Notes: generated from the letters alone by a model not told the origin. DNA of 64,000 bases from Patescibacteria group bacterium (GCA_018897195.1 JAHILH010000003.1:431-64430); one strand, 5' to 3'. Counted from the stretch's first letter, positions 3 through 64,000 are shown. Program-made: numbers and translations.

Positions 3-332
3 GGATATGGTAATCAATTTGTTCATGCGGCTAAACAGGATTTTTCTAGCCCATCAGAACTATCCAATCCACTTGGCTCTGATGAAAACATGAGAGATCC
101 AAACTACGTCATCGGCAAAATCATCAACTCCGTCCTTGGAGTTGTCGGTACTATTGCCTTAGTAATGTTTATTTACGGTGGTTTTCTTTGGATGACTTCT
201 GGTGGTGGCGATGGCGTCAAGAAGGGGAAGGAGACTATTGTTTGGGCTACTTTTGGTTTGGTTATCATCTTTATGGCCTATTCAATTGTCAATTTCGTGA
301 TTGGTAATATTTTATTAGGTAAGCCAGTATAA
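3..332 (+). CDS. Small two-TM T4SS pilin-like protein (TrbC/VirB2-like mini-pilin); 5' end runs off the window
   Basis: The frame is open from nt 3, with no stop upstream of the ATG at 90. The C-terminal part has two hydrophobic helices joined by a Gly-rich turn (FIYGGFLWMTSGGGDGVKKGKE), the layout of TrbC/VirB2-type pilins. A hairpin terminator follows. Confidence 0.5.
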   Translation, partial: GYGNQFVHAAKQDFSSPSELSNPLGSDENMRDPNYVIGKIINSVLGVVGTIALVMFIYGGFLWMTSGGGDGVKKGKETIVWATFGLVIIFMAYSIVNFVIGNILLGKPV

Positions 333-2944: not shown

Positions 2945-3136
2945 TCATCGTCATTCCCGCGAAGGCGGGAATCCAGGCGCTACAAATAATGGATGTATAA
3001 TTATAGAAACTATCCCGAGTGCTCGGGATTAATAAAAATATTGATAATAAATAACACTTCGTAAATTTTAATTCTCCTTACATTGAAAACACTCTACGAG
3101 GTGCCTGGATCCCCGCCTTCGCGGGGATGACGAATG
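2945..3136. mobile_element. MITE-like element bounded by ~34-bp inverted repeats of the 'VIPAKAGIQ' palindromic repeat type
   Basis: Left arm tcatcgtcattcccgcgaaggcgggaatccaggc (2945-2978). Right arm gcctggatccccgccttcgcggggatgacgaatg (3103-3136) is its near reverse complement. Each arm is itself a hairpin. The internal palindrome atcccgagtgctcgggat lies at 3012-3029. The element fills the whole mgtA-xth gap. Confidence 0.6.
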
Positions 3137-49004: not shown

Positions 49005-49847
49005 ATGAATTTATTACAAAAAACCCAAAAAATTTGCCAAGAGAATAAAATTGAGCCTGCCCGGTCAAAGGGGCAGAATTTTTTAATTAATGAAGGAGTT
49101 TATGATGATATTATTGTGGCATCCGATTTGCAGGCAGCTGACGTAGTTTTAGAAGTGGGACCTGGTTTGGGGTTTTTGACACGAAAATTAGCGGAAAAGG
49201 TGCAAAAAGTCATTGCCATTGAATTAGACGATGTCCTGGCGGCCTTGTTGGTCAAAAATTTGACCAAGGAAGGGATTAAAAACGTGGAGGTGCGCAATGA
49301 GAACATTCTTGATTTAAACTTGCAGGGCGTGGATTTTGTGGCTAACAAATATAAAATAGTAGCCAATCTTCCATATAATATTACTTCAGTTTTCTTGCGT
49401 CGTTTTTTAGAGACTGACAATCGGCCAGAGTTGATGGTTTTGATGTTGCAAAAAGAAGTGGCTGAGCGGATTATTGCTAAGCCGGGACAGATGAGTATTT
49501 TGGCTAATTCAGTGCAGTTTTTCGCGAATGGTGATATTGTTCAGGTGGTGCCCAAAAATGATTTTTGGCCAGCCCCAAAAGTAGACTCGGCGGTTATTAA
49601 GCTGAAAACATTTGAATCAGTTGAAGATGCGGCTTACCAGAAGCGATTTTTTAGATTGGTAAAGCATGGATTTGTTTCCAAGCGTAAAATGTTAAAGAAT
49701 AATCTGTCGTCCGGATATCATGTGCCTCAAGAAAAGATCTTGCCAGTAATTGAAAAAGTGGGCTTAAATGAAAAAGCACGGGCTCAGGAATTGGCGCTTG
49801 ACGATTGGAAGAGATTGCTTGTCGAAGTGGAGGCAAATATGTTATAA
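49005..49847 (+). CDS. rsmA: 16S rRNA (adenine1518/1519-N6)-dimethyltransferase
   Basis: 280 aa. KGQNFL, VLEVGPGLG, ANLPYNI motifs. Confidence 0.92.
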   Translation: MNLLQKTQKICQENKIEPARSKGQNFLINEGVYDDIIVASDLQAADVVLEVGPGLGFLTRKLAEKVQKVIAIELDDVLAALLVKNLTKEGIKNVEVRNENILDLNLQGVDFVANKYKIVANLPYNITSVFLRRFLETDNRPELMVLMLQKEVAERIIAKPGQMSILANSVQFFANGDIVQVVPKNDFWPAPKVDSAVIKLKTFESVEDAAYQKRFFRLVKHGFVSKRKMLKNNLSSGYHVPQEKILPVIEKVGLNEKARAQELALDDWKRLLVEVEANML

Positions 49848-49913
49848 TTATCATAGTTGTTGATAACCCTAACGGAGTCCCTTTGGGTGATTCATATTCA
49901 TAATAAATTCCTC

Positions 49914-50633
49914 ATGCAAGAAGAGCAAAACATCAGAGAAGATGTTGGTGGATTGAATGATAGTAATCAAGTTGTTGATTATAATCAGTATTATTCAAGA
50001 CCACCTTTGAGTAAAGGCCAAAAGATCGCGGTCGCGGTTTTGGCTTTTTTTTCGTTTTTCATAATTATTGCTTGGATGATTCAGTTTAAGCAGGGTATTT
50101 CCGCACCTTTGAGCGGTTCTTCGACTGTGACCAACTCCAATCCGGTAACTACCGATACTGAGGTACCAGCAACTGTGAATATGACCAAGGATACCGATGG
50201 TGATGGCCTGACTGATTACAATGAGCTTAATACTTATAAAACTTCGCCATATTTAGAGGATTCCGATAGTGATGGTTTTAGTGATAAGGTGGAGATTGAT
50301 AGCGGTAAGGATCCGAATTGTCCAACGGGGGCTATTTGTAATGCGGTTGGGACTGATACGATAGCATCGACGACAATAAATGGAGTGCAGAGTAATAATC
50401 CCTTACTAAATTCCGTAGGACAGGAGGCAAATCAATCAGGAGGCAGTCAGCCAATATTGAATTTATCTGCTAGTAGTACCGACACTATTGACGCACAAAA
50501 GGTTTTGGCCGGTCAAGCTGACGCAGCTTCATTGCGCAAGATGTTGCTTCAAGCGGGTATGGATCCGACGGTGCTAGAGAAGATTTCCGATGAGGATTTA
50601 ATGAATAATTATAAACAAACTTTAAATAAGTGA
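49914..50633 (+). CDS. Single-TM membrane protein with thrombospondin-type-3-like Ca-binding repeats
   Basis: I placed the start at the ATG at 49914; the track start at 49857 is a TTG. TM segment IAVAVLAFFSFFIIIAWMI, then DTDGDGLTDYNE and DSDSDGFSDKVE motifs. Confidence 0.55.
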   Translation: MQEEQNIREDVGGLNDSNQVVDYNQYYSRPPLSKGQKIAVAVLAFFSFFIIIAWMIQFKQGISAPLSGSSTVTNSNPVTTDTEVPATVNMTKDTDGDGLTDYNELNTYKTSPYLEDSDSDGFSDKVEIDSGKDPNCPTGAICNAVGTDTIASTTINGVQSNNPLLNSVGQEANQSGGSQPILNLSASSTDTIDAQKVLAGQADAASLRKMLLQAGMDPTVLEKISDEDLMNNYKQTLNK

Positions 50634-50667
50634 TTTAAAATAGTGAGGGTTTAAATTTGTAAACAAT

Positions 50668-53600
50668 ATGACTACGGAAAATAAAAAAACAATAAAGAAG
50701 AGATTTTGGCAGAGCTTTGTTTTAGGATTTTTTGTTGTTTTTTTATTGTTTGGTCGTGGCAAAAATGTTGCGGCGCTGTTCACTGGAACAGATTTTGCCG
50801 GAGGATCGGTTACAGATATAGCTTCATTGGGCAGCGCAGATCAGGCGGCGTTTGATCAGGCTCTTGGTGCTGGATTGATTAAGGTTGGTGATGATGGGGT
50901 GGTAAAAACTACCCTAAAGGGTGATATGGCTGATGCTGCGTCATGGGCTAGGACTTTTGCAGAACAAAAAACTAGAGATGCTTTGTCGACTCTTAATGCG
51001 AAAACTTTTTGGGCGGCGGCTCAAAAATCTTTAAACACCATTGCTTACGATACAGCTACTTGGATTGGCTCTGGTGGAAAAGGTCAAAAGCCGTTGTTTA
51101 TTACCGAGGGTTGGGATAAGTATTTGGCCAATATTGGTGATAATTTTGCCGGAGAATATATTGAAGCTCTGAGTAAGAAGTGGGATGCTAATCTTTGTAA
51201 CCCTAGCTTTGATATTAAAATTAAAATCTTAGGTGGTTTGTCTGGACCGTATCGGAAGAAAGCGCCGGCTTGTACTTTTACAACAATGAAGAAAAATTGG
51301 GAGTCGGAACTGGCTAGACCGGATTTTCTTAATCGCTTCCAAAATATGTTTGAGCCTAACTCTAATGATTTGGGCATCGCCTTGTCTTTGCAAACTAATT
51401 TAATGGAGGCAAGTGCTAACAAGACTAGATTGGCGGAGGAGAGGGTGAAGAATAAAAAAGGTTGGTTGGACGTTACGGATATAGCTGGCAATTTAACAGG
51501 GCTACCAACTGATCAGATTGTTACGTATCAATTGCAAAAAGATGGAACAACGAGAGCTATTGCTGCCAATACTTTTACAGGAACAATGGTTGACGCGGTT
51601 AATGTCTTTTTAAATCAATTAGCTGCGACCGTATTCAGTAATTTATTAAAAAGTTTAACCGGCGCGCCTGCTACGTCGCCGTACACAGGTGATTATGGCT
51701 TGGTGAATGTTAACGCTGGTGGTGGATCTGGCGGCACTGAAGCAGTCAAGGAGCAGTTTAAGAAGATTATTGAGCCTAATTTTACGGTGCGAGGTGATTA
51801 TGATATTTTGGCTGAATTAACAATATGTCCAGACCCAACTAAGGCGGGACCAACTAATTGTGTAATTACTGATAAATTCCGACAGGCGATTGCGGGTCGG
51901 ATGACAGTGGGAGAGGCAATGGATCAGAAGTATCTTAATCAGGATGCTATTTTTGGATTCAGATTAGATGGCTTAGAGCCGAAATATAACGAAGATTATC
52001 CATATCGTTCCATGATTATTTTGCGCAAATTTAGAATCTTGCCTGTCGGCTGGGAGGTGGCTGCGCAATATATCAAGGATCCTGCAACTGGTACAGGTGT
52101 CAGATCCTTAAAAGATTTAGTCGATTGTTTCTCTGATAATGATGCGCGTAATGGTTATTCAGCTAATTGGTGTAAGGGTTTAGTAGATCCAGATTGGGTT
52201 TTAAAGGCACCCTTGGGTTATTGTAAGAAAGAGGGGTATGGCCCAGAAATATTATCAGAAAATATTACTGGCGAGGGGAGTGCGAGCAAGTTGTCTATTT
52301 CTCGTAATAATAATTATTGCGCCGATGAACAATCTTGTATCAAGGAAAAAGCAGACGGCTCTTGTGATGTTTATGGTTATTGTACTGAAGAAAAGCGTAA
52401 ATGGAATTTTGGCAGCAATTCTTGCGAGCCGATTTATAATACTTGCCAGACCTTCCGCAGTCGTCAAGGTAATACAGTTTCTTATTTGCAAAATGGTTTA
52501 GATTTTAATAATTGTAGCGCGGATGCGGTTGGTTGTAGAGAGTATGCCATGGGCGTTAGTGCTAGTAATGGTTTTTATAATGTTGTAGATAATTCTGTCA
52601 AGTGGAGTTTATCAAGTGCCTCATCAACTTTTAATCGCATCATGAGTGATTGTGACGTTAAGGGTGAAGGTTGTCATCAGTTTATTCGTACGGAAATGAG
52701 CAACGGCGCTAATATTTTTGGCGGTTTTGAGGATTTGTTCGATGCGACTGTTGACGCAACAGCGGCCTTCGGTGACAAGAGTGTGAAATTAACACATGAT
52801 ATTGCCACTACCGTACCGGCCTTTAAGATTGACGTTGATTTGAAGGGTTATTATTATACCTTTTCCGTTTCGGCAAAAAATTGTGGCACCAACGGCGTGA
52901 TTGGAATAGGTGACAGTTTGACTAATTATTCATCGTCCACATTAGAAACAACAGATCAATGGCAACGTTTTGCAGTTTCGCATTATTTTAATAAAGAAAA
53001 TGAAAGTAATGATGGTCGAGTTTGGATAGGCGTTATCGGTGCTGACTATGCAAATTGCTTGATTGATGGCGTAAAAGTGGAAAAGAGTAAGAATCCGACT
53101 GTTTTTAGTGAATATGCACAGGTGGGCGTGATTTATGAAAAATTATTACCAAATTATTTGGAATATGTTTGTTATGATGATCCTGGGTTAAATTATAGCT
53201 TGAAGAGTACAGCACCCGCTATTTGTAATAGTTTTGCACGCAAGTGTAATGCCGAGGAGGTAGGTTGCAAAATGTTTACAGCGACAACGGACAAGATGAC
53301 AATCCCGGCGAGTGTAATACCGACTGATTATTGTGATGCATCCTGTAATGGTTATGACGAATATTTGCAATCAGAGAGTGCTTTTGATTCCCGACGATCG
53401 GCTTATTTGATTCCAACCAAAACCAAGACTTGTGGCGCCGAAGCAGTTGGCTGTGATCAATTTACTAACCTGGACAAGGTCGGTGATAGCGCGCAAAAGG
53501 AAAAAGTTGATCAGTATGGGGCAGAAGCAGTTGAGTATTATAGTGAGCTGAAGCAATGTGTTAAGGCTGGTGATGTAGCTTGCGCTGAATTTTATACCTG

Positions 53601-56600
53601 GGAGGGATCTTCAGAGACTGGTTTTCAATTAAAAGTTCATCAATTAAAGGCTGATAGCGCCACTGATCCGGCGGTTTCTAGTGATTCTCTTTATAATAAT
53701 AAAGTCTGTGATTCAGATACTTATGGAAGCCTAGACAATCCAATGTGTTTCGAGTTCTATAATAAGACGGGAAAAGTATCTTATAAATTTTTGCCGTATA
53801 CAATAGCTTGTAGTGACGATTGTCATCCATATCGCCGCACAGCTGTGAATGTTGACGATAGTATAACGACGCAAGCTGCTTGTGGTAGTGTTATTTGTAC
53901 TGATGAAGGGGCGGACAAGAAAGACAGCTGCTGGGATGCTCTTTTGAGTAATTGCAATGTTTGTTTGAATGGCGGTAAGTGGAGCGTAGCAGGCCAGGCT
54001 TGTATCTATGATGCAATCCCCGGTGAAGGCAAGACTTGTGCAGCGACTCAAGATGGTTGTCGTGAATATAATGGTAATTCAGGAGCCAACGTGCAGATTG
54101 TTTTACAAAGTGATTTCGAGGGTAGTGCTTCCGGATGGCAGGGCCTTGATGGTACTCAGGCGATACTTGATAGTGAGTCATTGAAATCTGGTGAAAATTC
54201 TCTTATGATTACTAACGCTAGCGGTGATACCGGTATTTCTTATGACGTCTCCGATGTTGTTAAGCAAGGCAAATCTTATCATTTAGCTTTCTTGGCTAAA
54301 GGTAAATCAAATTTAGTTAATAAATTTACTAATATTTATTTTGATTCTGGTGTAGCCTCATCATCATTGGCAGTGAATGCCGTGATTAAGACCGATTGGA
54401 ATCTTTATGAATTGAATTTGACTTCATTAGATCATGAAATAAGCGTTGATGAAAAATTACTCATTAAGGCTAATGGCGATTTTTTTATTGATAACATTAT
54501 TCTTACGGAAATTACAGATCGTTATTACTTGATTAAGGGTTCATCGGTTATTCCAGATGTTTGCAATAGTGATATTTTTGGCAATTATCAGGGACCAGAA
54601 TATAATTTGGGTTGTGCTGAATACTCCTCTGAAGGTGATAATAATAAACATTATTTGCGTCAATTTACTAATTTGTGTCAGGAAAGCGCAATCGGTTGTG
54701 AGATGATGATTGATACGCACAATAGTTCCAGTGCAGCTGAGGATAATATTGCCTTTGTTGTTTATAGCAAAGATAAGGAATGCACCAGTGAAGAAAAGGG
54801 CTGTGAACGAATGGGAGAAGTATCTAAATATGATAGCGGTGTTACTGATAGTGTTATTGAGAATTTTTATACTGATGTCTATAAGCTCAATAATCCAGAT
54901 AACGTGCAGGGCAAATGTGCCGCTGATCAGGTCGGTTGTGATGAATGGATATTTGACACGGCGTCGAATAATAATGGTGGGGCATCATTGAGTTATTTCA
55001 AAGACCCCTTTGATATGACTTGCGAATGGCGACAAAAGGCCAGCTCTACCGATTTTGACTGGTATCGAAAAAAGATTAGCCGATGTGGCGGTGTTGAAGA
55101 TGGACATATTTGTAAGAGTGACAAGGATTGTAGCACTGAATTAATGGATGTTAAAAAAACATGTACACTGTTCGATAAGGATATTTCTTGCTATGTCAGT
55201 AGTCAAAAAACAATCGGCTATGGTGGTTACGGTAATATTGTTGACCAGCCAAGTAATTATTGGGTGGGTGCTTGCCCAACTAGTCAATCGACTTGTACTG
55301 AATATATTGACCCTATTTCTAATTTCAGTTCTAATGTTATTTATAATAGTGATTTTTCGCAAGATGTTGATGGTAATCGTGTTGCTGATGGTTGGAGTGA
55401 GAACAAAGAGCAGAGCGTGTCATTGGAACCGAATACTTTGTACACTTTTTCAGTTAAATCTGGTTCTGGTTTTACGGCAAGCGTGACAGCAAGAAATTTA
55501 ACGTTGTTAAATGAAGGCAATTTATTCGCAGCCAGTGGCGCAATTTCTATTACTGTAAACGATGATGCGATTAGTAAATCTTTTTATTCAAATAATTCTA
55601 ATGGCGCCGTTGTTGAAGTTAGTTCTTCTGATGTGGCTTCGGGAAACAGTGTTAGCCTGAAAAAGAGTGTAATTGATTATCAATTAAGTCAAAGCGTTAA
55701 TAGGGATGAATGTAATGGATCCTTGAATCCTAGTAAGGGCTGTGTTTTGTTCAATGAACGAAAGAAGCCGGGAGTTTCGTATAGTGGACTAATTTATGAT
55801 GCCGACACAAGTACAACGACGCTAACCAGTGTGGCTGGGCAGAATGATTCTAATGTTTTATTAAAAGTTTCTCCTGATCGCACCTGTGATGAATGGTTGG
55901 CTTGCAAGAGCTATGTCAAAGATGAGAATAATAATAATGTTTGCTACGGTGTTGGCTTATGTGATAGCATTGGCGCTAATAATGACTGCAACAATTTTAT
56001 CGTTCCCGATAGTAAAAACCAGCAAGCAATCTCATCTAATTTTAGTAAATATCAAAATGCTTCAGGTTATTCCGAAGTTGGTGTCGTTAATAATACTTTG
56101 AAAAAAGATATGTTGCCATTAGCGTCTATGACTCAAAATGGAGGCATGACAGTGGTTCCCAATGGTGATTTTGAAAGAAGCGCTAGTAAATATCCGCTTG
56201 GTTGGAGTCCTTCTAATGATCTGGCATGGACGAATAATTTATTTTCCGTGGTCGATAATCCTATCACCGCTCAGACCGAAGGTATTAAATATGCCGGCAA
56301 AGGTAAAGCCTTTTTGAAATATTCGCCAGCAGCGGGAAATATGGAATCTGATTTTATTGACGTTGATCCTGGCGAAAACTACTATTTATCAGCCGATATT
56401 AACACGCTTAATTTCTTTTCCAAGGGAAATGTTCCGCTTTCATTTTATATTAGAATCCAAACATTTAGCAGCGCCGGTGTTTTTATAAATTCTTTTGATC
56501 CGATTGTTTTCGCCAATGGCAAGGATTGGAGCCAGGTTGTTAGTAATTTTTGGGTTAATAATAATGTTCATCGCATAAAAATAGAGTTTTTGGGTTGGGT

Positions 56601-58467
56601 TAATAATTCTACTGTTTGTGCTGGTCAGGGCGACACTTGTTCTGGTAATGTTTATGTTGATAATGTTGTCATTAAGCCAGCGCTAAAGACTAGAGTGGTT
56701 AACGGTTTTTATGACACTGTTGCTCCAACTTGCCGGCTTTATCCAGAAAGTGATTCATTATCATGTGAATATTACGAAGACTCTGGAATTAAGAAAAAAG
56801 GTCGCTATGGTTATTGCTTGGAGTATGATCGTTATCCAGGTAATCCCAATGCTTGTTTATTGTGGTATCCAGTTGACCGTATACGTGGTGATTGGGAGGA
56901 GGATGTGGTTGGATATAATGATCGCTATCCCTTGTATTATTGTACGCAATTCCACTCTCGAAATTTAGAGCTTGTTGAGAGAAGAGTTGATACTCGTTTT
57001 GGACACGCTGAGCCGGGAGATGATGAGTGTGCTGGCGCTTATTGCAATGGCGCTGGATGCAGTACTTGTAAATGTCCTAGCGGATATATATGGGAGGATG
57101 TGGAGGGTGATGGCGGTTGGGATGGTAATCCGAATGATGAATATTGTCACCCTAGTGGCACAGCTAGTGCTTGCGGGGGCGGGTATTACTTATATGATGG
57201 TGATTTGCAGAATTTTGGGGGAAATGCTGGTAGTTATGATGAGGCAAAAACTGGAGTCAAATTGTGTGACAGGGATACAGGGGAATTATTTGATCCTGGT
57301 CAGTTCTCTGATTTGTTTTATTGTACTAGTTTGGCCAAGGTTGTGACATTTAGTAATAATAAACATTGGAGTGGGCGAGTTTATAGTGGTTCTGATTATA
57401 AAATTCAAACACTTAATTATGGCTACAAGATGCCTCTTGGACCGTTTAGTGGCGTAGTGTCACCGTATCTAGCAGAAAATCCTGCCGGCTGGGATGCTAA
57501 GAAAAACACTGACACTAATACCAACGTAGAGCCATTGCCAATAAAAAATTTCAAGGATGATGCGCTATACTCAAAGGAAGTTAATTCTGGGGCATTGTAT
57601 AGTTGTGAGGGTAATTGCATTAAAAGCGGTCTGTGTCAAAAATCTCGAAAATTCTGCTATAATCTTCCAGTGCCGCCAACTCCGCCAAATGCGGTTAATC
57701 CAAATAATAATTTTGTGAATTATTTTGAATGTGCCGTTGGAGATGTTTGTGAAACTAGTTTTCCAGTTTTGAGCACGGGTGATAATCCTGTCGCTGCTTA
57801 TGACAAGATTAAAAGAGTTTTTGCGGAAAGTTATGGTACTTGGAAGTGGGGCGGTAATAAGTATGTAAAAACTAGCTATAACTGGTCTGTTCCTCGGAAT
57901 ATTTGTGGTGGTAGCACACCGACCAATGTTAGACCGGCTTATCCAGACGATTTTTGTGGTATTCCGCCAAGGGTTAGCAATCTTTTAATAAGGGGCGTTA
58001 TAAATGATGCTGTTCTTCGTAAAAATGGCCTAATTAACTTATCTTTTAATTCCATTCTTGATAGTCAACAAATGCCTCTAGTTATGTATACGGTAAATTG
58101 GGGTGATAATAATAGTGACACCGTTTCCGGCATTGAAATATTACCAAGGATGAGTACGAGTAGTCCGCATGTACTGTACTATTCTTATAGTTATTGGGAT
58201 CTAAAGGCCAAAAACTCCATCAACAATCTTCCATCTGGACAGAATACTGTTTATTGTGGTGCTCATGACACTAAAACTGCTTTAAACGCAAGTGGTGATG
58301 CGATTTCCATAACGGCAACCTCAACGTCTGATTTTTGCGCTGTTAAACCTAAAGTGAAATTAAAAGATAACTGGGGGTGGTGTACTGGAGGTGTTGATAA
58401 TACCCCTTGTTCTGATACTGGTGATTATGCTAATTATCCAGGCTGGGTTATTGTGACGGAGCAATAG
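50668..58467 (+). CDS. Giant (2599 aa) N-terminally anchored, Cys-rich extracellular protein with four CBM4/9-like jelly-roll modules
   Basis: One uninterrupted ORF. N-terminal TM FWQSFVLGFFVVFLLFG. Four ~120-180-aa modules start with G/S/N-[GD]-F-E/S and end with [ILV]D[GN][IV]x[ILV] (nt ~52720-53095, 54105-54530, 55340-55690, 56155-56690). At least 13 copies of the motif C-x3-6-G/T-C-x2-aromatic. Confidence 0.8.
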   Translation: MTTENKKTIKKRFWQSFVLGFFVVFLLFGRGKNVAALFTGTDFAGGSVTDIASLGSADQAAFDQALGAGLIKVGDDGVVKTTLKGDMADAASWARTFAEQKTRDALSTLNAKTFWAAAQKSLNTIAYDTATWIGSGGKGQKPLFITEGWDKYLANIGDNFAGEYIEALSKKWDANLCNPSFDIKIKILGGLSGPYRKKAPACTFTTMKKNWESELARPDFLNRFQNMFEPNSNDLGIALSLQTNLMEASANKTRLAEERVKNKKGWLDVTDIAGNLTGLPTDQIVTYQLQKDGTTRAIAANTFTGTMVDAVNVFLNQLAATVFSNLLKSLTGAPATSPYTGDYGLVNVNAGGGSGGTEAVKEQFKKIIEPNFTVRGDYDILAELTICPDPTKAGPTNCVITDKFRQAIAGRMTVGEAMDQKYLNQDAIFGFRLDGLEPKYNEDYPYRSMIILRKFRILPVGWEVAAQYIKDPATGTGVRSLKDLVDCFSDNDARNGYSANWCKGLVDPDWVLKAPLGYCKKEGYGPEILSENITGEGSASKLSISRNNNYCADEQSCIKEKADGSCDVYGYCTEEKRKWNFGSNSCEPIYNTCQTFRSRQGNTVSYLQNGLDFNNCSADAVGCREYAMGVSASNGFYNVVDNSVKWSLSSASSTFNRIMSDCDVKGEGCHQFIRTEMSNGANIFGGFEDLFDATVDATAAFGDKSVKLTHDIATTVPAFKIDVDLKGYYYTFSVSAKNCGTNGVIGIGDSLTNYSSSTLETTDQWQRFAVSHYFNKENESNDGRVWIGVIGADYANCLIDGVKVEKSKNPTVFSEYAQVGVIYEKLLPNYLEYVCYDDPGLNYSLKSTAPAICNSFARKCNAEEVGCKMFTATTDKMTIPASVIPTDYCDASCNGYDEYLQSESAFDSRRSAYLIPTKTKTCGAEAVGCDQFTNLDKVGDSAQKEKVDQYGAEAVEYYSELKQCVKAGDVACAEFYTWEGSSETGFQLKVHQLKADSATDPAVSSDSLYNNKVCDSDTYGSLDNPMCFEFYNKTGKVSYKFLPYTIACSDDCHPYRRTAVNVDDSITTQAACGSVICTDEGADKKDSCWDALLSNCNVCLNGGKWSVAGQACIYDAIPGEGKTCAATQDGCREYNGNSGANVQIVLQSDFEGSASGWQGLDGTQAILDSESLKSGENSLMITNASGDTGISYDVSDVVKQGKSYHLAFLAKGKSNLVNKFTNIYFDSGVASSSLAVNAVIKTDWNLYELNLTSLDHEISVDEKLLIKANGDFFIDNIILTEITDRYYLIKGSSVIPDVCNSDIFGNYQGPEYNLGCAEYSSEGDNNKHYLRQFTNLCQESAIGCEMMIDTHNSSSAAEDNIAFVVYSKDKECTSEEKGCERMGEVSKYDSGVTDSVIENFYTDVYKLNNPDNVQGKCAADQVGCDEWIFDTASNNNGGASLSYFKDPFDMTCEWRQKASSTDFDWYRKKISRCGGVEDGHICKSDKDCSTELMDVKKTCTLFDKDISCYVSSQKTIGYGGYGNIVDQPSNYWVGACPTSQSTCTEYIDPISNFSSNVIYNSDFSQDVDGNRVADGWSENKEQSVSLEPNTLYTFSVKSGSGFTASVTARNLTLLNEGNLFAASGAISITVNDDAISKSFYSNNSNGAVVEVSSSDVASGNSVSLKKSVIDYQLSQSVNRDECNGSLNPSKGCVLFNERKKPGVSYSGLIYDADTSTTTLTSVAGQNDSNVLLKVSPDRTCDEWLACKSYVKDENNNNVCYGVGLCDSIGANNDCNNFIVPDSKNQQAISSNFSKYQNASGYSEVGVVNNTLKKDMLPLASMTQNGGMTVVPNGDFERSASKYPLGWSPSNDLAWTNNLFSVVDNPITAQTEGIKYAGKGKAFLKYSPAAGNMESDFIDVDPGENYYLSADINTLNFFSKGNVPLSFYIRIQTFSSAGVFINSFDPIVFANGKDWSQVVSNFWVNNNVHRIKIEFLGWVNNSTVCAGQGDTCSGNVYVDNVVIKPALKTRVVNGFYDTVAPTCRLYPESDSLSCEYYEDSGIKKKGRYGYCLEYDRYPGNPNACLLWYPVDRIRGDWEEDVVGYNDRYPLYYCTQFHSRNLELVERRVDTRFGHAEPGDDECAGAYCNGAGCSTCKCPSGYIWEDVEGDGGWDGNPNDEYCHPSGTASACGGGYYLYDGDLQNFGGNAGSYDEAKTGVKLCDRDTGELFDPGQFSDLFYCTSLAKVVTFSNNKHWSGRVYSGSDYKIQTLNYGYKMPLGPFSGVVSPYLAENPAGWDAKKNTDTNTNVEPLPIKNFKDDALYSKEVNSGALYSCEGNCIKSGLCQKSRKFCYNLPVPPTPPNAVNPNNNFVNYFECAVGDVCETSFPVLSTGDNPVAAYDKIKRVFAESYGTWKWGGNKYVKTSYNWSVPRNICGGSTPTNVRPAYPDDFCGIPPRVSNLLIRGVINDAVLRKNGLINLSFNSILDSQQMPLVMYTVNWGDNNSDTVSGIEILPRMSTSSPHVLYYSYSYWDLKAKNSINNLPSGQNTVYCGAHDTKTALNASGDAISITATSTSDFCAVKPKVKLKDNWGWCTGGVDNTPCSDTGDYANYPGWVIVTEQ

Positions 58468-58522: not shown

Positions 58523-60112
58523 ATGATTTTCGATAAAATAAAAAAAACCATAAACATAATAGAGAATTCAGAATATTCCATCTTGTCTTATTTTTTTAGT
58601 TTTTTTGTGATTATAAATCTTAGGTGTTTTCTGGAGGTTTTTTCTAGTGCCTCGAGGATAGATTTTTTGCAGTATTCCCACTACGTATTGTTTTATTTTT
58701 CTATTGTTATATCCTTTGTTATTTTGTTTTATTTTGCATCCAGGGAGAAAATAGAAAAAATATTTAAAGTTGTTCTTTCTTTTTCGCCCGTTATCTTGAT
58801 CCCACCGTTAATTGATTTGTTGGTTTGTGGAGATAGGCATTGTACAATGACCTATTTGACTAATTCTGCTACCCATTCTAGTAATCTATTGGCTAGGTTT
58901 TTAACGCTTGGTGGTGAGTACCGCAGTATTGGGGGAATAACTCCAGGAATTAAGGTTGAGTTGATTGTCGTTCTGTTGGCAAGTTTTGTTTATTTCTTAC
59001 TTAAAAAGAGGGGGTATTTAAAAAGTGTTTTTTTTGCATTTATTACTTACGTTATTTTTTTTGCTTATTTCGCTACGCCAATATTTTTAAGTTTATTTCT
59101 TGAAATTTTTAATAAAAATATCAAGGATAATTTTAATTTTTATCTTGCTAACTACTTTATTATTATTATTTCGTTGCAACTCATTGTTGTTCTTTTTTTG
59201 TATAATAGAAAGATATTTAATGCGATAATAGGGGATATGCGCTGGTTGCGAATTTTATATTTTGAAGCGATGGTATGGATCGGCTTGTTTATTGCCAGGG
59301 GTGGTTTAGGGATAAAAGGCTACTATCTGAATACTACTAATGCCTCTGATTCGTTTGTCAATTTTCCTTTTCCGTATTTAACATTTGCGATAATTATGGT
59401 TTTCGCTTGGTTGTATTCAGTGATTGGCAATAACATAGAAGATTTCGAGATTGATAAAATTTCTAATCCAGATAGACCGCTGGTGAGCAAAAAGGTACCA
59501 GTGGATGTTTATAGACAAATTGGCAATATTTCCTTAATATTGGTATTATCATCCTCCGCTGTTGTAGGTTTTTCTGTTTTTTATTTCTTATTAATCTTTA
59601 TTGGTAATTATTTTATTTATTCAACACGTCCGTTTCGATTAAAGAGGGTGCCAATACTTTCTAAATTGGTAATATCCGTAAATTCGTTGTTGCTGATGCT
59701 TGTTGGTTATCTTTATGGCTTTAATGCCGTAAGTCAAAGCGCGTCTAGTATCATCAGGACTTTTCCAGGAGAAGTTGTTTTTTTTGTTTTGGTGTTAATG
59801 ACTCTTGCTATTAATTTTATCGATATAAAAGATTATGAGGGTGATAAAAAGGCTGGTATAAAAACATTGCCAGTTATTCTTGGTTTAAGGCGAGGCAAGA
59901 CTGTGATTGGAATGTTTTTTCTAGCCGTATATGTGTCTATTTATTTTATTTTCAGGATAAATATTTTATTATTTTTTTTCTTATTAATTATCGGAATGAT
60001 TCAATTTGTATTGATTAATCGGAAAAAATATACAGAAAGGCCAATTTTTTTATTTATTTTGTTAAGCATCTTGATTCTATTTTTTGGTAAATTATTCGCG
60101 GTGAGTATTTAA
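58523..60112 (+). CDS. UbiA-superfamily prenyltransferase domain with a ~230-290-aa polytopic N-terminal extension
   Basis: 529 aa, about 14 hydrophobic segments. First Asp-rich motif NNIEDFEIDKISNPDRPL (NxxxDxxxD...RPL). Second motif DIKDYEGDKKAGIKTLPV (DxxDxxxD...G..T). Confidence 0.7.
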   Translation: MIFDKIKKTINIIENSEYSILSYFFSFFVIINLRCFLEVFSSASRIDFLQYSHYVLFYFSIVISFVILFYFASREKIEKIFKVVLSFSPVILIPPLIDLLVCGDRHCTMTYLTNSATHSSNLLARFLTLGGEYRSIGGITPGIKVELIVVLLASFVYFLLKKRGYLKSVFFAFITYVIFFAYFATPIFLSLFLEIFNKNIKDNFNFYLANYFIIIISLQLIVVLFLYNRKIFNAIIGDMRWLRILYFEAMVWIGLFIARGGLGIKGYYLNTTNASDSFVNFPFPYLTFAIIMVFAWLYSVIGNNIEDFEIDKISNPDRPLVSKKVPVDVYRQIGNISLILVLSSSAVVGFSVFYFLLIFIGNYFIYSTRPFRLKRVPILSKLVISVNSLLLMLVGYLYGFNAVSQSASSIIRTFPGEVVFFVLVLMTLAINFIDIKDYEGDKKAGIKTLPVILGLRRGKTVIGMFFLAVYVSIYFIFRINILLFFFLLIIGMIQFVLINRKKYTERPIFLFILLSILILFFGKLFAVSI

Positions 60113-60128
60113 CTAAATAGATTTTTTT

Positions 60129-60168
60129 AAAGAGATGAGTTAATGAATTAGACCATCTCTTTTATTTT
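60129..60168 (+). terminator. Hairpin terminator after the UbiA-like gene
   Basis: aaagagatg (60129-60137) / catctcttt (60154-60162), 16-nt loop, then tattttgggttttt. Confidence 0.45.
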
Positions 60169-60194
60169 GGGTTTTTGGCGAAATGTGATATAAT
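60167..60194 (+). promoter_or_regulatory. Possible extended -10 promoter for the 60297-64000 genes
   Basis: TTGGGT, 16 nt, TGaTATAAT (TATAAT at 60189-60194). Confidence 0.35.
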
Positions 60195-60296: not shown

Positions 60297-60893
60297 ATGT
60301 CAGAAGCCGTTTTAAACAATGTAGATCAAATGATGATGGCACGGAATAACCGGGTTGATGAGGGTGGCCGAGCGGGAGAGTTACGAGAGAGACAGATGAC
60401 GGCGCGAAGAGGGGTTGAGCCGACGGCGGCGGTTGAGGCGGGACGAGAACAGAGTTTGCGAGAGAGAGTGCAGGCAGCGCGGGCGATGAGCGCGAAGAAG
60501 AGTTTGAATAAGGCGATAAAAAGTAAGATAAAATCCCCAGCCATGGAGGGCACGAGCAGATTGTTGCGACAAGCCTGGTATTATCTGATTCCCAGCATGG
60601 GCTTTTCCTTGCTCTGGATCGATATCCACGTTTTAGGTTCTTTTGTTTTTGGCAAAGAAATTTTTTGCGAATTAGGCGAAGAGTGGCCGATTAAAATTGA
60701 TTCATACGCCGAATGGGCTTTATTTTTAGCCTTGAATTTGATGGCGATATTGATAATTGTATCAATCTTGGCTTTTTTGGGAATGATTGTAAATTTTATG
60801 ATGAACCCATTAGATAGTTTAGTTGAGTTTATAAAGCTTGGTTGGAGTGCTATTGGCGCATTGGCCAATTTATTCTTTGATGCTTGGAATTAG
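60297..60893 (+). CDS. Hypothetical membrane protein with Arg/Ala/Glu-rich, locally GC-rich N-terminal region
   Basis: 198 aa. aa 1-85 are charged (RAGELRERQMTARRGVEPTAAVEAGREQSLRERVQAARA). aa 95-198 contain 3-4 hydrophobic helices. Confidence 0.5.
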   Translation: MSEAVLNNVDQMMMARNNRVDEGGRAGELRERQMTARRGVEPTAAVEAGREQSLRERVQAARAMSAKKSLNKAIKSKIKSPAMEGTSRLLRQAWYYLIPSMGFSLLWIDIHVLGSFVFGKEIFCELGEEWPIKIDSYAEWALFLALNLMAILIIVSILAFLGMIVNFMMNPLDSLVEFIKLGWSAIGALANLFFDAWN

Positions 60894-60908
60894 TGATTTT
60901 TTAGATTT

Positions 60909-63302
60909 ATGAAAATGTTTAAAAATAAAAAATTAATAACATCTCTACTGATTTTGTTTTTTTTGGTTGTGCCGATTAGTTTTGTTTCCGCGGATGCGGC
61001 AGAAATAGCGGGTAATGTTGGAACTGGGTTGTCAGAAGGTGTTGGCGCAGCCGTATCTGTTGTGATTGGAATAATTGCTCTTATTATAACGTCAGTATTG
61101 GGACTAATATCCACTCTGTTGATAAAAATAATTGTCAACGTTGCCCAGTTTAATAACATTATAAATGTGGAAGTAGTACGAGTTGGCTGGGTAATAGTGC
61201 GTGATCTTTGTAATATGTTTTTTGTTCTAATATTTTTAGTAATCGCGTTTGCAACAATTTTACGGGTTGAAAGCTACAATTTTAAAAAAATGTTGCCTAA
61301 ACTATTAATGTATGCTGTTTTAATAAATTTTTCTCGGACTATTTTTGGATTAATTATTGATGCCTCGACGATTGTGATGCTTACTTTTGTGAACGGGTTT
61401 GCAAATGCCCCAGGACAATTTGTTGATTTGATGAATATGTCAAAAATTGGACAAATATGGGATGCAACAAGTACCGGTGAAGGATTTAATACGTGGGCTA
61501 TAGCGGTCGGGATAATTGCTGGTGTATTTGCGTCGGTGATGACTGTGGTGGTTTTAGCAGTTATTCTAGCAGTATTAGCAATGAGAGTAGTAATGCTGTG
61601 GATATATACCGTTCTTTCTCCCTTGGCTTTTTTAGGTTTTGGCTTTGATCCTCTCAAAAAGTTTACTCAAGAAATTTGGGAAGACTTTATTAAAACGGTT
61701 ATTGTTGGACCGGTTTTAGCTTTTTTTATTTATTTAGCATTTAAGGTTAACGCTTCGGTTGATAGTCTTAATATAATGGCTGCTAAAAATGGTGATCAGG
61801 TTTGCGCCGGCGCAAACGCTTTATTTTGCGAAGGAAATTTTCAAAAATACATTATCGTAATCGCCATGCTGATGGGCGGCTTAAAGGTGTCACAGAAGAT
61901 TGGCGGTGAAGTATCTAAGATTGCCGGCAAGACGGAGAATTGGACAAAGGGGAAGATTAAATCGGCTGGTAATAAGTCCGGTGCGGCTGCATGGGGCGGT
62001 GTTAAGACTGGTGGTGGTATAGCGATGGGCGGTCTTAAAGCGGCGGATGCAACTTGGAATAAAGGTCGCGGAGCATCCGTGGTTGGTATGGTGCAGGATA
62101 GATACAAGTCCGCAGCTAAGGGCGCAGTGGCTGGTGGTGCCGTTGGCGCCATTGGTGGTTTTGGCGGCGCAGCTCTTGGTGGCCTGGTTGGAGGGGTTGC
62201 TGGGGCGTTTAGTAAAAATGCTGGTGATCATTTTGACAATAAGAGAAAATTGCGAGAGGCGCAGGGTAAAATCACTACAGATGCAAAGGGGACTTGGTTT
62301 TCTCAAAATGGAATTGATTACATGAAAGACACAAGGGATGGCAAATTTAAGCAAGCTGACAAGAAGGCTGGCGTTATTACAGATTCTGATGCGTTAAAAA
62401 TTGGTAAAATGGATTTAGAGGACACAACCGATAAGCAAAAAATGTTCTCCGCACATTATCGTTCAGCAACTAACAAGGGCAAGGCTTCAAGAGAGGTGGC
62501 AGAGAAGGAAGGCGTTGACAAAACAATGAAAAATTATAATGGTATATCACCGGAAGATTTAAAGAGATTGTTTGATACTGAGACAGACAGAGAGAAGGCA
62601 AAGGCGTTGGCGATGCTTTTGAAGGGTAAATTTAAAGATGGCGAGCATGCGCAAGTAAACAAGGCTAAAGATCTTTTGTCTGGCAATGAATTGATGAATA
62701 AGGATTTTTCTGAGGCGATGATGAAGAATAATGCATATTTGTATAATACAAGAGCTGATGGTAGTGTGGATACAAAATCAATTGAAAAAGCCTTTTCCGA
62801 GGGTAGGATTAAATTGGAGGAACAAGGCTTGTCAAATTTGAATGCTGATTCCATGAAGACATTTGCGAAGATTCTTGGTGATAAATTTGAAGCAGCAGCT
62901 GGTAAGATGGTAAAAAATACAGCCGATGCTGATAAATTTAAAAAGATTTTTGAAGATGGAGTTGCTGGTGGCAAAATAAAAGATTTCAAAGATGACGACC
63001 TGGCTATTAGAAGGGCATTCTCTAAGGTTACGGGCGATCTTCATACTGGATTCCAAGATACTAGCGGCGCTGGTCTAGGTGTTGGTGAGTTGAATAATTT
63101 TGTAAAAGACATGAGCGTTAAAGATTTTGGCAAGGTTAGCGATGAGGCTTTGTGGAATCAAGGAGTCCAGGATGCCATCCGTGGTGTTTCTGCTGAGATG
63201 ATAAAGAAAGTTTCCAAGAGCAATGATTTAACTGATAGACGAATTAAGAATGTTGAAAATATTGCTGGTCAAGCCAAAGGAGTTTTAACAGTTATTACGT
63301 AA
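60909..63302 (+). CDS. VirB6/TrbL-like polytopic membrane protein with Gly-rich linker and ~400-aa Lys/Asp/Glu-rich C-terminal domain
   Basis: 797 aa. Signal peptide, about 6-7 TM helices in aa 40-330, a Gly-rich stretch GGVKTGGGIAMGG...GAVAGGAVGAIGGFGGAALGGLVGGVAGAF as in TrbL C-termini, then a soluble charged domain. Confidence 0.5.
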   Translation: MKMFKNKKLITSLLILFFLVVPISFVSADAAEIAGNVGTGLSEGVGAAVSVVIGIIALIITSVLGLISTLLIKIIVNVAQFNNIINVEVVRVGWVIVRDLCNMFFVLIFLVIAFATILRVESYNFKKMLPKLLMYAVLINFSRTIFGLIIDASTIVMLTFVNGFANAPGQFVDLMNMSKIGQIWDATSTGEGFNTWAIAVGIIAGVFASVMTVVVLAVILAVLAMRVVMLWIYTVLSPLAFLGFGFDPLKKFTQEIWEDFIKTVIVGPVLAFFIYLAFKVNASVDSLNIMAAKNGDQVCAGANALFCEGNFQKYIIVIAMLMGGLKVSQKIGGEVSKIAGKTENWTKGKIKSAGNKSGAAAWGGVKTGGGIAMGGLKAADATWNKGRGASVVGMVQDRYKSAAKGAVAGGAVGAIGGFGGAALGGLVGGVAGAFSKNAGDHFDNKRKLREAQGKITTDAKGTWFSQNGIDYMKDTRDGKFKQADKKAGVITDSDALKIGKMDLEDTTDKQKMFSAHYRSATNKGKASREVAEKEGVDKTMKNYNGISPEDLKRLFDTETDREKAKALAMLLKGKFKDGEHAQVNKAKDLLSGNELMNKDFSEAMMKNNAYLYNTRADGSVDTKSIEKAFSEGRIKLEEQGLSNLNADSMKTFAKILGDKFEAAAGKMVKNTADADKFKKIFEDGVAGGKIKDFKDDDLAIRRAFSKVTGDLHTGFQDTSGAGLGVGELNNFVKDMSVKDFGKVSDEALWNQGVQDAIRGVSAEMIKKVSKSNDLTDRRIKNVENIAGQAKGVLTVIT

Positions 63303-63313
63303 AGAAATAAATA

Positions 63314-64000
63314 ATGCTAGAAGATATTAACAAACAAGAAGAAATAAAAACGGCAATCGAGAATTTTTCTGGGTATATGCTTGGTTTTTTGGATATATAT
63401 TCAGAGGATGCACGGGTTGTATTGGAGGATTATAATGACCTGCTTATTTTAATGTTGACTCAAGAGCAAGGACTAAAGAAGTCTCTAGAACAAGCTCTTT
63501 TAATTAATCAAGAAAAAATTGCCCATTTGGCTGTTATCGATTGGCTCAAGGATTTTATTTCTCAAAAAGGATCAGCTATGTTTAATGATATAATCTTGAC
63601 CGATTATATAGCGCACTCAGTTAATTGTCAGAAATTAAATGACGAAAATCGACGCTTAGTGCGAAAACTTTTGATTCTTTATCGTAATTTAAAGTTCTTT
63701 CCAGCAAGCATGCCCAATGACTCTGGGGCGGATTGGGAAATTATTCCAATCGATGACAAGGTGCGTGAGTTTAGTCGTGATGCGCTTAGTGCGCCAAAGA
63801 CGGCGGAGGAGAAGAATATTGATGTTTTACAGGCGCAGAGTGATGAGTATGGCGCTGATAGCTTGGAGAAGAAAGTGATTGAGGAGGAGATTAGCAATGA
63901 AAAGAAAATCGAGGGGCTTAGGATTATGGCGAATCGCTATCCAGAAGGAAGTTTGGAGTGGCGGGCACTCATGGATGAGGTTAAGAAAATGCAAGTTTAA
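63314..64000 (+). CDS. Hypothetical soluble protein (stop codon is the last triplet of the window)
   Basis: 228 aa. Starts 11 nt after the TrbL-like gene. No recognised motif. Confidence 0.45.
   Translation: MLEDINKQEEIKTAIENFSGYMLGFLDIYSEDARVVLEDYNDLLILMLTQEQGLKKSLEQALLINQEKIAHLAVIDWLKDFISQKGSAMFNDIILTDYIAHSVNCQKLNDENRRLVRKLLILYRNLKFFPASMPNDSGADWEIIPIDDKVREFSRDALSAPKTAEEKNIDVLQAQSDEYGADSLEKKVIEEEISNEKKIEGLRIMANRYPEGSLEWRALMDEVKKMQV

Follow-up and report, generated by a model that had tools for sequence, protein, structure and literature searches.

We analysed a stretch of 64,000 nucleotides (nt) from a Patescibacteria group bacterium (GCA_018897195.1 JAHILH010000003.1:431-64430), which is referred to as the window and whose positions are counted from its first letter. 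Two adjacent plus-strand genes near its end, at 60297-63302, encode a small membrane protein of 198 amino acids (aa) and a VirB6/TrbL-like polytopic membrane protein of 797 aa. The locus belongs among the type IV secretion systems (T4SS) that were described not long ago from Patescibacteria, and it adds a putative accessory subunit that is undescribed. We consider it probable that this pair opens the membrane-channel part of a chromosomal T4SS of the Patescibacteria type, which is monoderm and MPF-FATA-like, with the 797-aa protein as an extended VirB6 and the 198-aa protein as an accessory subunit. The pair and the other secretion-related genes at the two ends of the window are as follows.

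60297-60893, plus strand: small membrane protein of 198 aa ('small200' family), from its open reading frame (ORF), nine close homologues and an AlphaFold2 (AF2) model
60909-63302, plus strand: probable extended VirB6/TrbL-like polytopic membrane protein of 797 aa, from homologues, Foldseek, hhalign and synteny
63314-64000, plus strand: soluble protein of 228 aa ('p228' family), an ORF whose stop falls on the last base of the window
3-332, plus strand: VirB2-like T4SS pilin, truncated at the window start so that only its C-terminal part is present (PF18895 T4SS_pilin, E 2.3e-10; PF04956 TrbC, E 9.6e-9)

The coordinates of the pair and the gap of 15 nt between the two ORFs agreed exactly with those given in an earlier note, which had been made on this DNA from the sequence alone. 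A start at 60915 is an alternative for the VirB6-like ORF; it yields 795 aa and was the choice of gene callers on other assemblies. The VirB2-like nature that the same note had given to the product of 3-332 was borne out by the PF18895 and PF04956 matches, both of which exceed the curated cut-offs.

Evidence for a VirB6-like nature of the 797-aa protein

The family of the 797-aa protein comprises 918 homologues in a large protein database. Most of them are 790-1,000 aa long, and those with a named source are all labelled Patescibacteria, Falkowbacteria or Gribaldobacteria. When 55 family members were re-scanned, PF04610 TrbL was the only recurrent Pfam family besides the glycine zipper and matched in 10 of them (best E 4.1e-5, 23.9 bits against a gathering score of 25.9). 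In two homologues (P0014 and P0030), the match covered profile positions 4-209 of 215. In addition, about a dozen of the homologues listed carry weak precomputed PF19590 TrbL_3 marks. A family alignment of TrwI, the VirB6 protein of R388, was built in this analysis, and its profile-profile comparison with the VirB6-like family by hhalign gave one colinear match of 135 columns (E 0.0085) between aa 107-264 of the query and aa 71-207 of TrwI. Both the TrbL and the TrwI alignments fall within aa 37-335, the transmembrane core. Furthermore, the Foldseek search of the AF2 model against PDB recovered the VirB6 fold, as five R388 TrwI/VirB6 chains (7o3v_F/G/H, 8rt9_F and 8rtd_L) were among the top hits and the best of them, 7o3v_F, had a probability of 0.98 and a target-normalised TM-score of 0.51.

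Some of the results weigh against this assignment. The 797-aa protein itself matched nothing in Pfam or NCBIfam even at E values up to 1, and every TrbL match found in its relatives is sub-threshold, below the Pfam gathering score. The hhalign probability for the TrwI family is low (4.7%), and the Foldseek E-values to TrwI are 0.3-1.1; we ascribe these modest E-values to the query being a long multi-domain chain. The VirB6-like profile searched against PDB sequences did not find VirB6, and its only hits were noise of low-complexity and coiled-coil type within the C-terminal half. The comparison of this profile by hhalign with the single TrwI and PrgH sequences was also not significant (E 0.087 and 0.11, respectively).

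These weak E-values and the absence of a significant hidden Markov model (HMM) match are what would be expected if the 797-aa protein were an unrelated polytopic protein, for example a transporter, lying beside T4SS genes and resembling VirB6 only as a generic helical bundle. All-helical membrane proteins give spurious fold matches, and one homologue has been named 'DMT family transporter' by NCBI. We hold this explanation to be improbable, since TrbL alone among Pfam families turns up repeatedly across members in the transmembrane core, with matches that span the whole TrbL model, and since five independent VirB6 chains appear in a ranking whose background consists of soluble helical repeats. 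In addition, the place of the gene in the T4SS operon is fixed even where the genomes are very divergent, stop and start codons often overlap, and these clusters have no other VirB6 candidate. Taken singly, each of these lines is weak or indirect, but the profile marks, the TrbL re-scan, the TrwI profile match, the fold and the gene context together make it likely that the 797-aa protein is VirB6-like. The TrbL/VirB6 assignment made in the earlier note was therefore supported by sub-threshold matches, fold and synteny, and not by a direct significant match in Pfam or NCBIfam.

Domain layout of the 797-aa protein

The layout that had been read from the sequence, with a signal peptide, a polytopic core, a Gly/Ala segment and a charged tail, was borne out, and in the AF2 model (mean predicted local distance difference test score, pLDDT, of 78.9 from a 79-sequence alignment) the tail is a confidently folded hydrophilic domain. 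The parts of the protein are given below.

60909-60992, plus strand: predicted Sec signal peptide, aa 1-28 (MKMFKNKK, a hydrophobic run and VSA/D), read from the sequence
61017-61913, plus strand: VirB6-like domain, a transmembrane core of helices at aa 37-335 (block-mean pLDDT mostly 80-97)
61974-62270, plus strand: Lys-rich and then Gly/Ala-rich (glycine-zipper-like) linker, aa 356-454 (pLDDT below 50; GC 0.52-0.59)
62271-63278, plus strand: hydrophilic C-terminal domain, aa 455-790, with a small beta-sheet and helices (pLDDT mostly above 90)

Long helices span aa 37-331 in the model, and hydropathy peaks were found at aa 49-67, 100-118, 132-163, 206-224 and 260-278, plus 310-331. The protein thus has at least five hydrophobic helices and is polytopic as TrbL/VirB6 proteins are. 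The first ~340 residues are well conserved in the family and the C-terminal remainder is divergent and weakly conserved; all the invariant residues sit in the core, for example G93, W94, R98, D99 and N102; N140, F141 and S142; S237 and P238; and G267 and P268. A net charge of +8 over aa 332-400 follows the last core helix. The region of aa 437-797 is hydrophilic (51 K, 38 D, 21 E and 14 R), and the C-terminal domain gave no match in Pfam or among PDB sequences. The GC content of the linker (0.532) is close to that expected from its amino-acid content (0.518), and homologues have Gly-zipper_Omp matches in Pfam. This glycine-zipper segment could be an extra membrane span, which would bear on the side of the membrane where the C-terminal domain lies and would count against the topology proposed below.

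A conserved T4SS gene cluster surrounds the pair

In two relatives (loci L012 and L014), the order of genes is KsgA, a TSP3-repeat protein, a giant protein of 2,569-2,607 aa, the small protein of 199 aa, the VirB6-like protein, a protein of 228/241 aa and a protein of 535/541 aa ('p535'). It continues with PrgI, a TraC-like protein, a VirB4-type ATPase, a protein of ~205 aa and a DsbA-like protein. The identity to the window proteins is 74% for the VirB6-like and 83% for the small protein of L012, and 51% and 77%, respectively, in L014. The clusters of relatives have the genes of a Patescibacteria-type T4SS, namely PrgI (VirB3-like; 28.4 bits against a cut-off of 27), the TraC-like PF26593 and VirB4 (P-loop_TraG, AAA_10 and DUF87). 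A re-scan of VirB4 of the L012/L014 type gave E 6.8e-27 for P-loop_TraG and 2.6e-10 for AAA_10. VirB4 and VirB3 neighbours were co-encoded with the pair in L012, L014, L005, L007 and L009. Distant relatives on contigs of 0.77-0.9 Mb showed the same order, with the genes from the giant one to VirB4 abutting or overlapping.

The generality of this arrangement was surveyed in 80 loci from representative genomes, in which ORFs were scored with HMMs built in this analysis. In 67 of the 74 loci with enough flank, the small200 gene is the one directly upstream of the VirB6-like gene; it is of typical size in 56 of these 67 and has an N-terminal extension in the other 11. Most of the seven loci where it seemed to be missing have at that place a divergent ORF of 165-222 aa with a similar design, in which the SGxLRE motif and a charged region are followed by Lys-rich sequence and then by membrane helices. 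The p228 gene directly follows the VirB6-like gene in nearly all the loci. VirB4 was found downstream in 35/48 loci with at least 8 kb of flank, and a gene product of 1,200 aa or more (mostly 2,000-3,080) upstream in 39/48 loci with at least 9 kb. The small and VirB6-like genes are tightly spaced in most loci, and in many relatives they overlap or are almost contiguous. This fixed adjacency and tight spacing suggest that the two proteins are co-produced and share a complex.

Two further observations were made on these loci. In L091 (8431-9998), three tandem paralogous ORFs of ~170-180 aa (MPNIIPLEKIENKILLIRGQKVMLD...) stand directly upstream of the VirB6-like gene, in the usual place of the small gene. 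Several cluster-bearing records (L015, L026, L031, L034 and others) are titled 'uncultured Gammaproteobacteria bacterium', and we take these titles to be misleading because the gene content is clearly patescibacterial.

The cluster bears on two statements of the earlier note. The pair and the pilin had been described as the sole secretion-like parts of the window, which did not hold, as 63314-64000 also belongs to the same conserved cluster and 49857-58467 probably does. The ATPase had been said to be missing or to lie outside the window, and the second option is judged to be the correct one, because clusters of relatives carry VirB4 beyond p228. In the two closest relatives, VirB4 starts 3.6-3.7 kb past the end of p228, and that end is the window end here. 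As a point on the other side, VirB4 of this organism was not seen, since the same-organism contigs retrieved, which carry identical 198-aa and 228-aa proteins, all end after p535 (an ORF of 542 aa). Thus, p535, PrgI, the TraC/TrsD-like protein, VirB4, the ~205-aa membrane protein and the DsbA-like protein would lie just past the window end.

The partner genes belong to conserved but unannotated families: p228, p535 and the ~205-aa protein gave no Pfam match, and their profiles found nothing credible among PDB sequences. In the p535 protein (L001, 13711-15339), the N- and C-terminal domains are conserved and the region between them is variable. The ~205-aa protein encoded after VirB4 (L012, 18016-18645) combines a membrane helix at the N-terminus with a conserved domain, FAERFGSYSNQSNY...YYGITTKA, and is a candidate for the VirB8-like part. 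A DsbA-like protein of thioredoxin fold closes the cluster (L012, 18665-19408; L014, 18817-19566; L005, 21203-21952), and DsbB was found in L009 (22602-22682). Their presence fits the Cys-rich nature of the giant protein and the conserved Cys residues in predicted external loops of both the VirB6-like and the small protein.

VirB4, VirB3 and VirB6 are ancestrally conjugation proteins and the Patescibacteria VirB4 clade is sister to MPF-FATA, a monoderm conjugation class (PMC12102498). On this ground, the cluster might be an integrated conjugative element in which the pair serves DNA conjugation and not host-interaction secretion. However, the cluster stands among housekeeping genes (AspRS, LeuRS and KsgA, together with, upstream, a run of short ORFs on the plus strand at about 28-38 kb that are arranged like a putative operon of ribosomal proteins), and it has the same chromosomal neighbours in distant genomes. 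No relaxase, integrase or VirD4 was noticed among the Pfam labels in the loci viewed, although no dedicated or systematic search for them was made, and most Patescibacteria T4SS clusters are without relaxase (PMC12102498). We therefore judge a conjugative element to be very unlikely and retain a chromosomal secretion system as the explanation of the cluster.

The small protein has an all-helical model and matches no described family

A profile made from the nine homologues of the 198-aa protein was searched against representatives clustered at 50% identity, and the small200 family was found to have 743 cluster representatives at E <= 1e-3, mostly of 190-220 aa. The record identical to the 198-aa protein is named Candidatus Parcubacteria at NCBI. 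Neither Pfam nor NCBIfam scans gave any match for the 198-aa protein, and 83 members of the family had no recurrent Pfam match. The small200 profile found nothing below E 0.49 among PDB sequences, and the AF2 model had no fold match in PDB by Foldseek. The comparison of small200 with the VirB6-like family by hhalign showed no homology between the two.

The AF2 model is all-helical (mean pLDDT 83.8), with N-terminal helices at aa 3-17, 23-38 and 54-77 and hydrophobic helices at aa 81-118 (kinked), 136-169 and 171-197. The model thus shows 2-3 hydrophobic helices against the 3-4 transmembrane (TM) helices proposed before. A conserved acidic loop with one Cys (FCELGEEWP; FCxLGEEWxP as the conserved pattern) lies between the hydrophobic helices of aa 81-118 and 136-169. 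The N-terminal charged helical domain comprises aa 1-91, and a net charge of +7 over aa 64-91 comes just ahead of the first hydrophobic helix. On account of this basic segment and the positive-inside rule, the N-terminal domain is predicted to be cytoplasmic; the Arg/Glu/Ala-rich helices with the AGxLRE and SLRER motifs would most likely face the cytoplasm. The model is therefore consistent with the Arg/Glu/Ala-rich, probably cytoplasmic helix that the earlier note had placed ahead of the TM helices. On contig L004, there seemed to be two genes for 198-aa proteins, but the first was the C-terminal end of the UbiA gene and no duplication was present.

The GC-rich 5' region of the small gene mostly reflects its coding content

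The small gene has a conspicuous GC-rich 5' region, of ~170 nt at about 60340-60510 as first described, which was delimited as follows.

60339-60506, plus strand: GC-rich island, codons 15-70 of the small gene (GC 0.625), encoding the conserved motifs AGxLRE...R and EQSLRERV, probably cytoplasmic

The GC content of 62.5% at 60339-60506 is the maximum among all the 168-nt windows of the 64 kb (mean 38.5%, sd 6%). In 150-nt sliding windows, it was 0.51-0.58 at 60300-60600 and 0.56-0.58 at 60300-60524 against 0.2-0.4 in the flanks and 0.20-0.37 in the preceding kilobase. The sole other stretch of at least 0.58 GC in the window is 61981-62230, which is the Gly/Ala segment of the 797-aa gene. The island peptide of 56 residues contains 11 Arg, 10 Ala, 7 Glu and 5 Gly. 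When codons for this peptide were re-drawn from the codon usage of the window itself, the expected GC was 57.0 ± 2.4%; thus, most of the peak comes from amino-acid content. The observed GC at third codon positions (GC3) was 0.61 against 0.425 ± 0.066 expected (~2.8 sd excess), and third-position purines made up 80% against 58.5 ± 5.3% (~4 sd excess). Ala was encoded by GCG in 8/10 cases, Glu by GAG in 6/7 and Gln by CAG in 3/3, and CGT and CGC were not used. A smaller codon excess of the same kind was found in the two closest relatives and was absent in more distant ones. The local GC peak is thus mostly the nucleotide footprint of an Arg/Ala/Glu/Gly-rich domain in a 38% GC genome, sharpened to a modest extent by a mild preference of the clade for codons ending in G or A.

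The excess in GC3 and third-position purines and the rank of the island as the most GC-rich 168 nt of the window could also point to a separate nucleotide-level element, such as a structured RNA or leader, an antisense gene or a recent foreign insert, that overlaps or replaces the 5' coding region. Two minus-strand ORFs overlap the island (60326-60553 and 60381-60629; 75 aa and 82 aa), which are the usual by-product of GC-rich coding sequence, and a segment reads ERQMTARRGV here and ESRMKAFYGG in relatives. However, the plus-frame protein is conserved across the island: AGxLRE, R50-E51 and R55 are invariant in the nine homologues, and at 38-46% identity the N-terminal motifs are kept better than the membrane part. 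Synonymous differences from L012 were equally common inside (16/42 conserved codons) and outside (36/107) the island, giving no sign of synonymous-site constraint. The RNA fold of the island was not more stable than its dinucleotide shuffles (z = +0.77), and the Rfam scan gave a single chance-level match (18.7 bits against a gathering score of 49). Furthermore, the small genes of relatives show a GC rise at the matching place, and amino-acid content alone gives 57% GC. The results on synonymous change, RNA fold and Rfam gave no indication of a nucleotide-level function of the island. A separate element is thus largely refuted, and we regard it as extremely unlikely; the island is real but ordinary, being neither a foreign insert nor an RNA element, and has no special significance.

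Within the island, codons 34-45 (60396-60431) encode RERQMTARRGVEP in the window lineage and in the homologue P0122 and RESRMKAFYGGEP in all the other close homologues. Non-synonymous changes are thus clustered locally here although the motif region around them is conserved, and these substitutions have made the island more Arg- and GC-rich in the window lineage.

Comparison with known T4SS and a possible arrangement of the pair

Chromosomal T4SS are widespread in Patescibacteria; in phylogeny they stand near the monoderm MPF-FATA class, and a relaxase is usually lacking (PMC12102498, Quinonero-Coronel et al. 2025). TrsD-like, PrgI-like and VirB2-like genes and KsgA are often near virB4 in these genomes, and no more than 480 cases of VirB6 were detected, so that only a minority of the genomes with virB4 had one, which the survey put down to extreme divergence elsewhere (PMC12102498). 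The cluster described here is alike in being of monoderm type, with VirB4, PrgI/VirB3-like, TrsD/TraC-like and VirB6-like genes, in having KsgA near and in having the VirB2-like pilin encoded elsewhere in the genome (here at 3-332). It differs in that its VirB6-like subfamily escapes standard HMM thresholds, and the small ~200-aa protein, p228, p535, the ~205-aa protein and the giant protein are not among the components named in the main text of that survey. Experimental data on Patescibacteria T4SS concern Saccharimonadia only, which is a different class.

With R388 TrwI/VirB6 (7o3v, 8rt9 and 8rtd) and PF04610, the 797-aa protein shares a polytopic helical core of ~250-300 residues, and the colinear profile alignment with TrwI includes the S/GPLxF...W segment. 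It is different in its identity of only 11-16%, in being more than twice as long, and in its signal peptide, Gly/Ala linker and C-terminal domain of 340 residues; the host here is a monoderm and lacks the partners that TrwI has in VirB5, VirB7, VirB9 and VirB10. The 'extended VirB6' proteins are a defined class with at least five hydrophobic helices and a large C-proximal hydrophilic domain (PMC12857230). The 797-aa protein has both, like the Rickettsiales paralogues and the Gram-positive VirB6-like proteins; however, its C-terminal domain has no sequence similarity to any detected in Pfam or PDB sequences, and the glycine-zipper-like linker is a feature of the present family. In the Enterococcus MPF-FATA prototype pCF10 (prgF-prgG-prgH-prgI-prgJ), small ORFs (75 and 98 aa) similarly precede the VirB6-like PrgH, VirB3-like and VirB4 genes follow, and prgB, a gene for a large surface adhesin upstream of the genes for the channel, has a parallel in the giant protein here. 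Unlike in pCF10, p228 and p535 separate the VirB6-like gene from PrgI in Patescibacteria, and the VirB6-like family had no homology to PrgH detectable in the hhalign comparison given above.

The following arrangement is proposed from these features. The 797-aa protein would be exported with its N-terminus out through the signal peptide, and its polytopic core of ~300 residues would form a membrane channel or platform working with the VirB3-like PrgI and the VirB4 ATPase. The Gly/Ala-rich flexible segment would then lead into the folded hydrophilic C-terminal domain. The 198-aa protein would be a lineage-specific accessory membrane subunit co-produced with the VirB6-like protein, and we infer that the two form a physical complex in which the VirB6-like core is most likely packed against by the 2-3 hydrophobic helices of the small protein. 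The system may serve the exchange of macromolecules with a host cell, as an analogy with the essential T4SS of Saccharibacteria would suggest. A more specific proposal is that the ~200-aa protein is an unrecognised core subunit specific to the T4SS of the Falkowbacteria/Parcubacteria group. Through its (A/S)GxLRE...SLRER domain, the VirB4/TrsD-like ATPase, or else substrates, would then be docked at the VirB6-like channel, in the role that VirB8 or VirD4 contacts, which are not easily found in these bacteria, have elsewhere, and the co-transcribed giant CBM-bearing Cys-rich protein would be a host-contact adhesin or secreted cargo. We advance this version only tentatively and consider it rather unlikely.

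The T4SS is the one secretion machine shown to be indispensable for a cultivated patescibacterium to grow as an epibiont, a T4SS cluster being essential for that growth in Ca. Southlakia epibionticum according to Wang et al. 2023, as cited in PMC12857230. The main value of the locus is in the undescribed accessory proteins of the patescibacterial T4SS in wall-bearing monoderms. Its large divergent VirB6-like family escapes the standard thresholds, but fold and synteny allow it to be recognised. The VirB6-like gene is accompanied by fixed unannotated partners, which are the small membrane protein, p228, p535, the ~205-aa membrane protein and the giant surface protein; these are concrete candidates for missing structural parts, an adhesin or cargo.

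Upstream neighbours in the window

Upstream of the pair, the window contains the following genes, and its remainder is made up of housekeeping genes.

49005-49847, plus strand: KsgA/RsmA rRNA dimethylase, the upstream synteny anchor (Pfam RrnaAD, E 1.8e-54)
49857-50633, plus strand: TSP3-repeat protein of 258 aa, preceding the giant gene (Pfam TSP3_bac, E 1.4e-7; synteny)
50668-58467, plus strand: giant Cys-rich protein of 2,599 aa (Pfam CBM_4_9, E 9.9e-9)
58523-60112, plus strand: UbiA-family prenyltransferase of 529 aa (Pfam UbiA, E 6.6e-29)

KsgA occupies the matching position in L007, L009, L012 and L014. The giant protein has an N-terminal membrane anchor or signal in addition to its CBM_4_9 domain, and in L007 and L009 the stop of its gene is 2 nt from the start of the small gene. 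It may be an adhesin, cargo or substrate of the system. The 2025 survey of Patescibacteria found no adhesin (PMC12102498), and in the literature we found nothing relevant on a link between giant proteins and the T4SS of Patescibacteria.

The UbiA-family protein has a membrane extension of ~280 residues at its N-terminus. Its gene stands between the giant and small genes in the window lineage only, being absent from that place in L012, L014, L005, L007 and L009, and it is outside the conserved cluster. A scan for consensus promoters and terminators gave sites no commoner than in shuffled sequence, with none called upstream of the small gene. By eye, a hairpin with a T-run (60131-60169) was seen 3' of the UbiA gene, followed by a TGATATAAT box at 60186-60194. 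As the UbiA insertion, the putative hairpin and T-run and this box all precede the small gene, it may start its own transcript in the window lineage, whereas in relatives it is joined to the operon of the giant gene.

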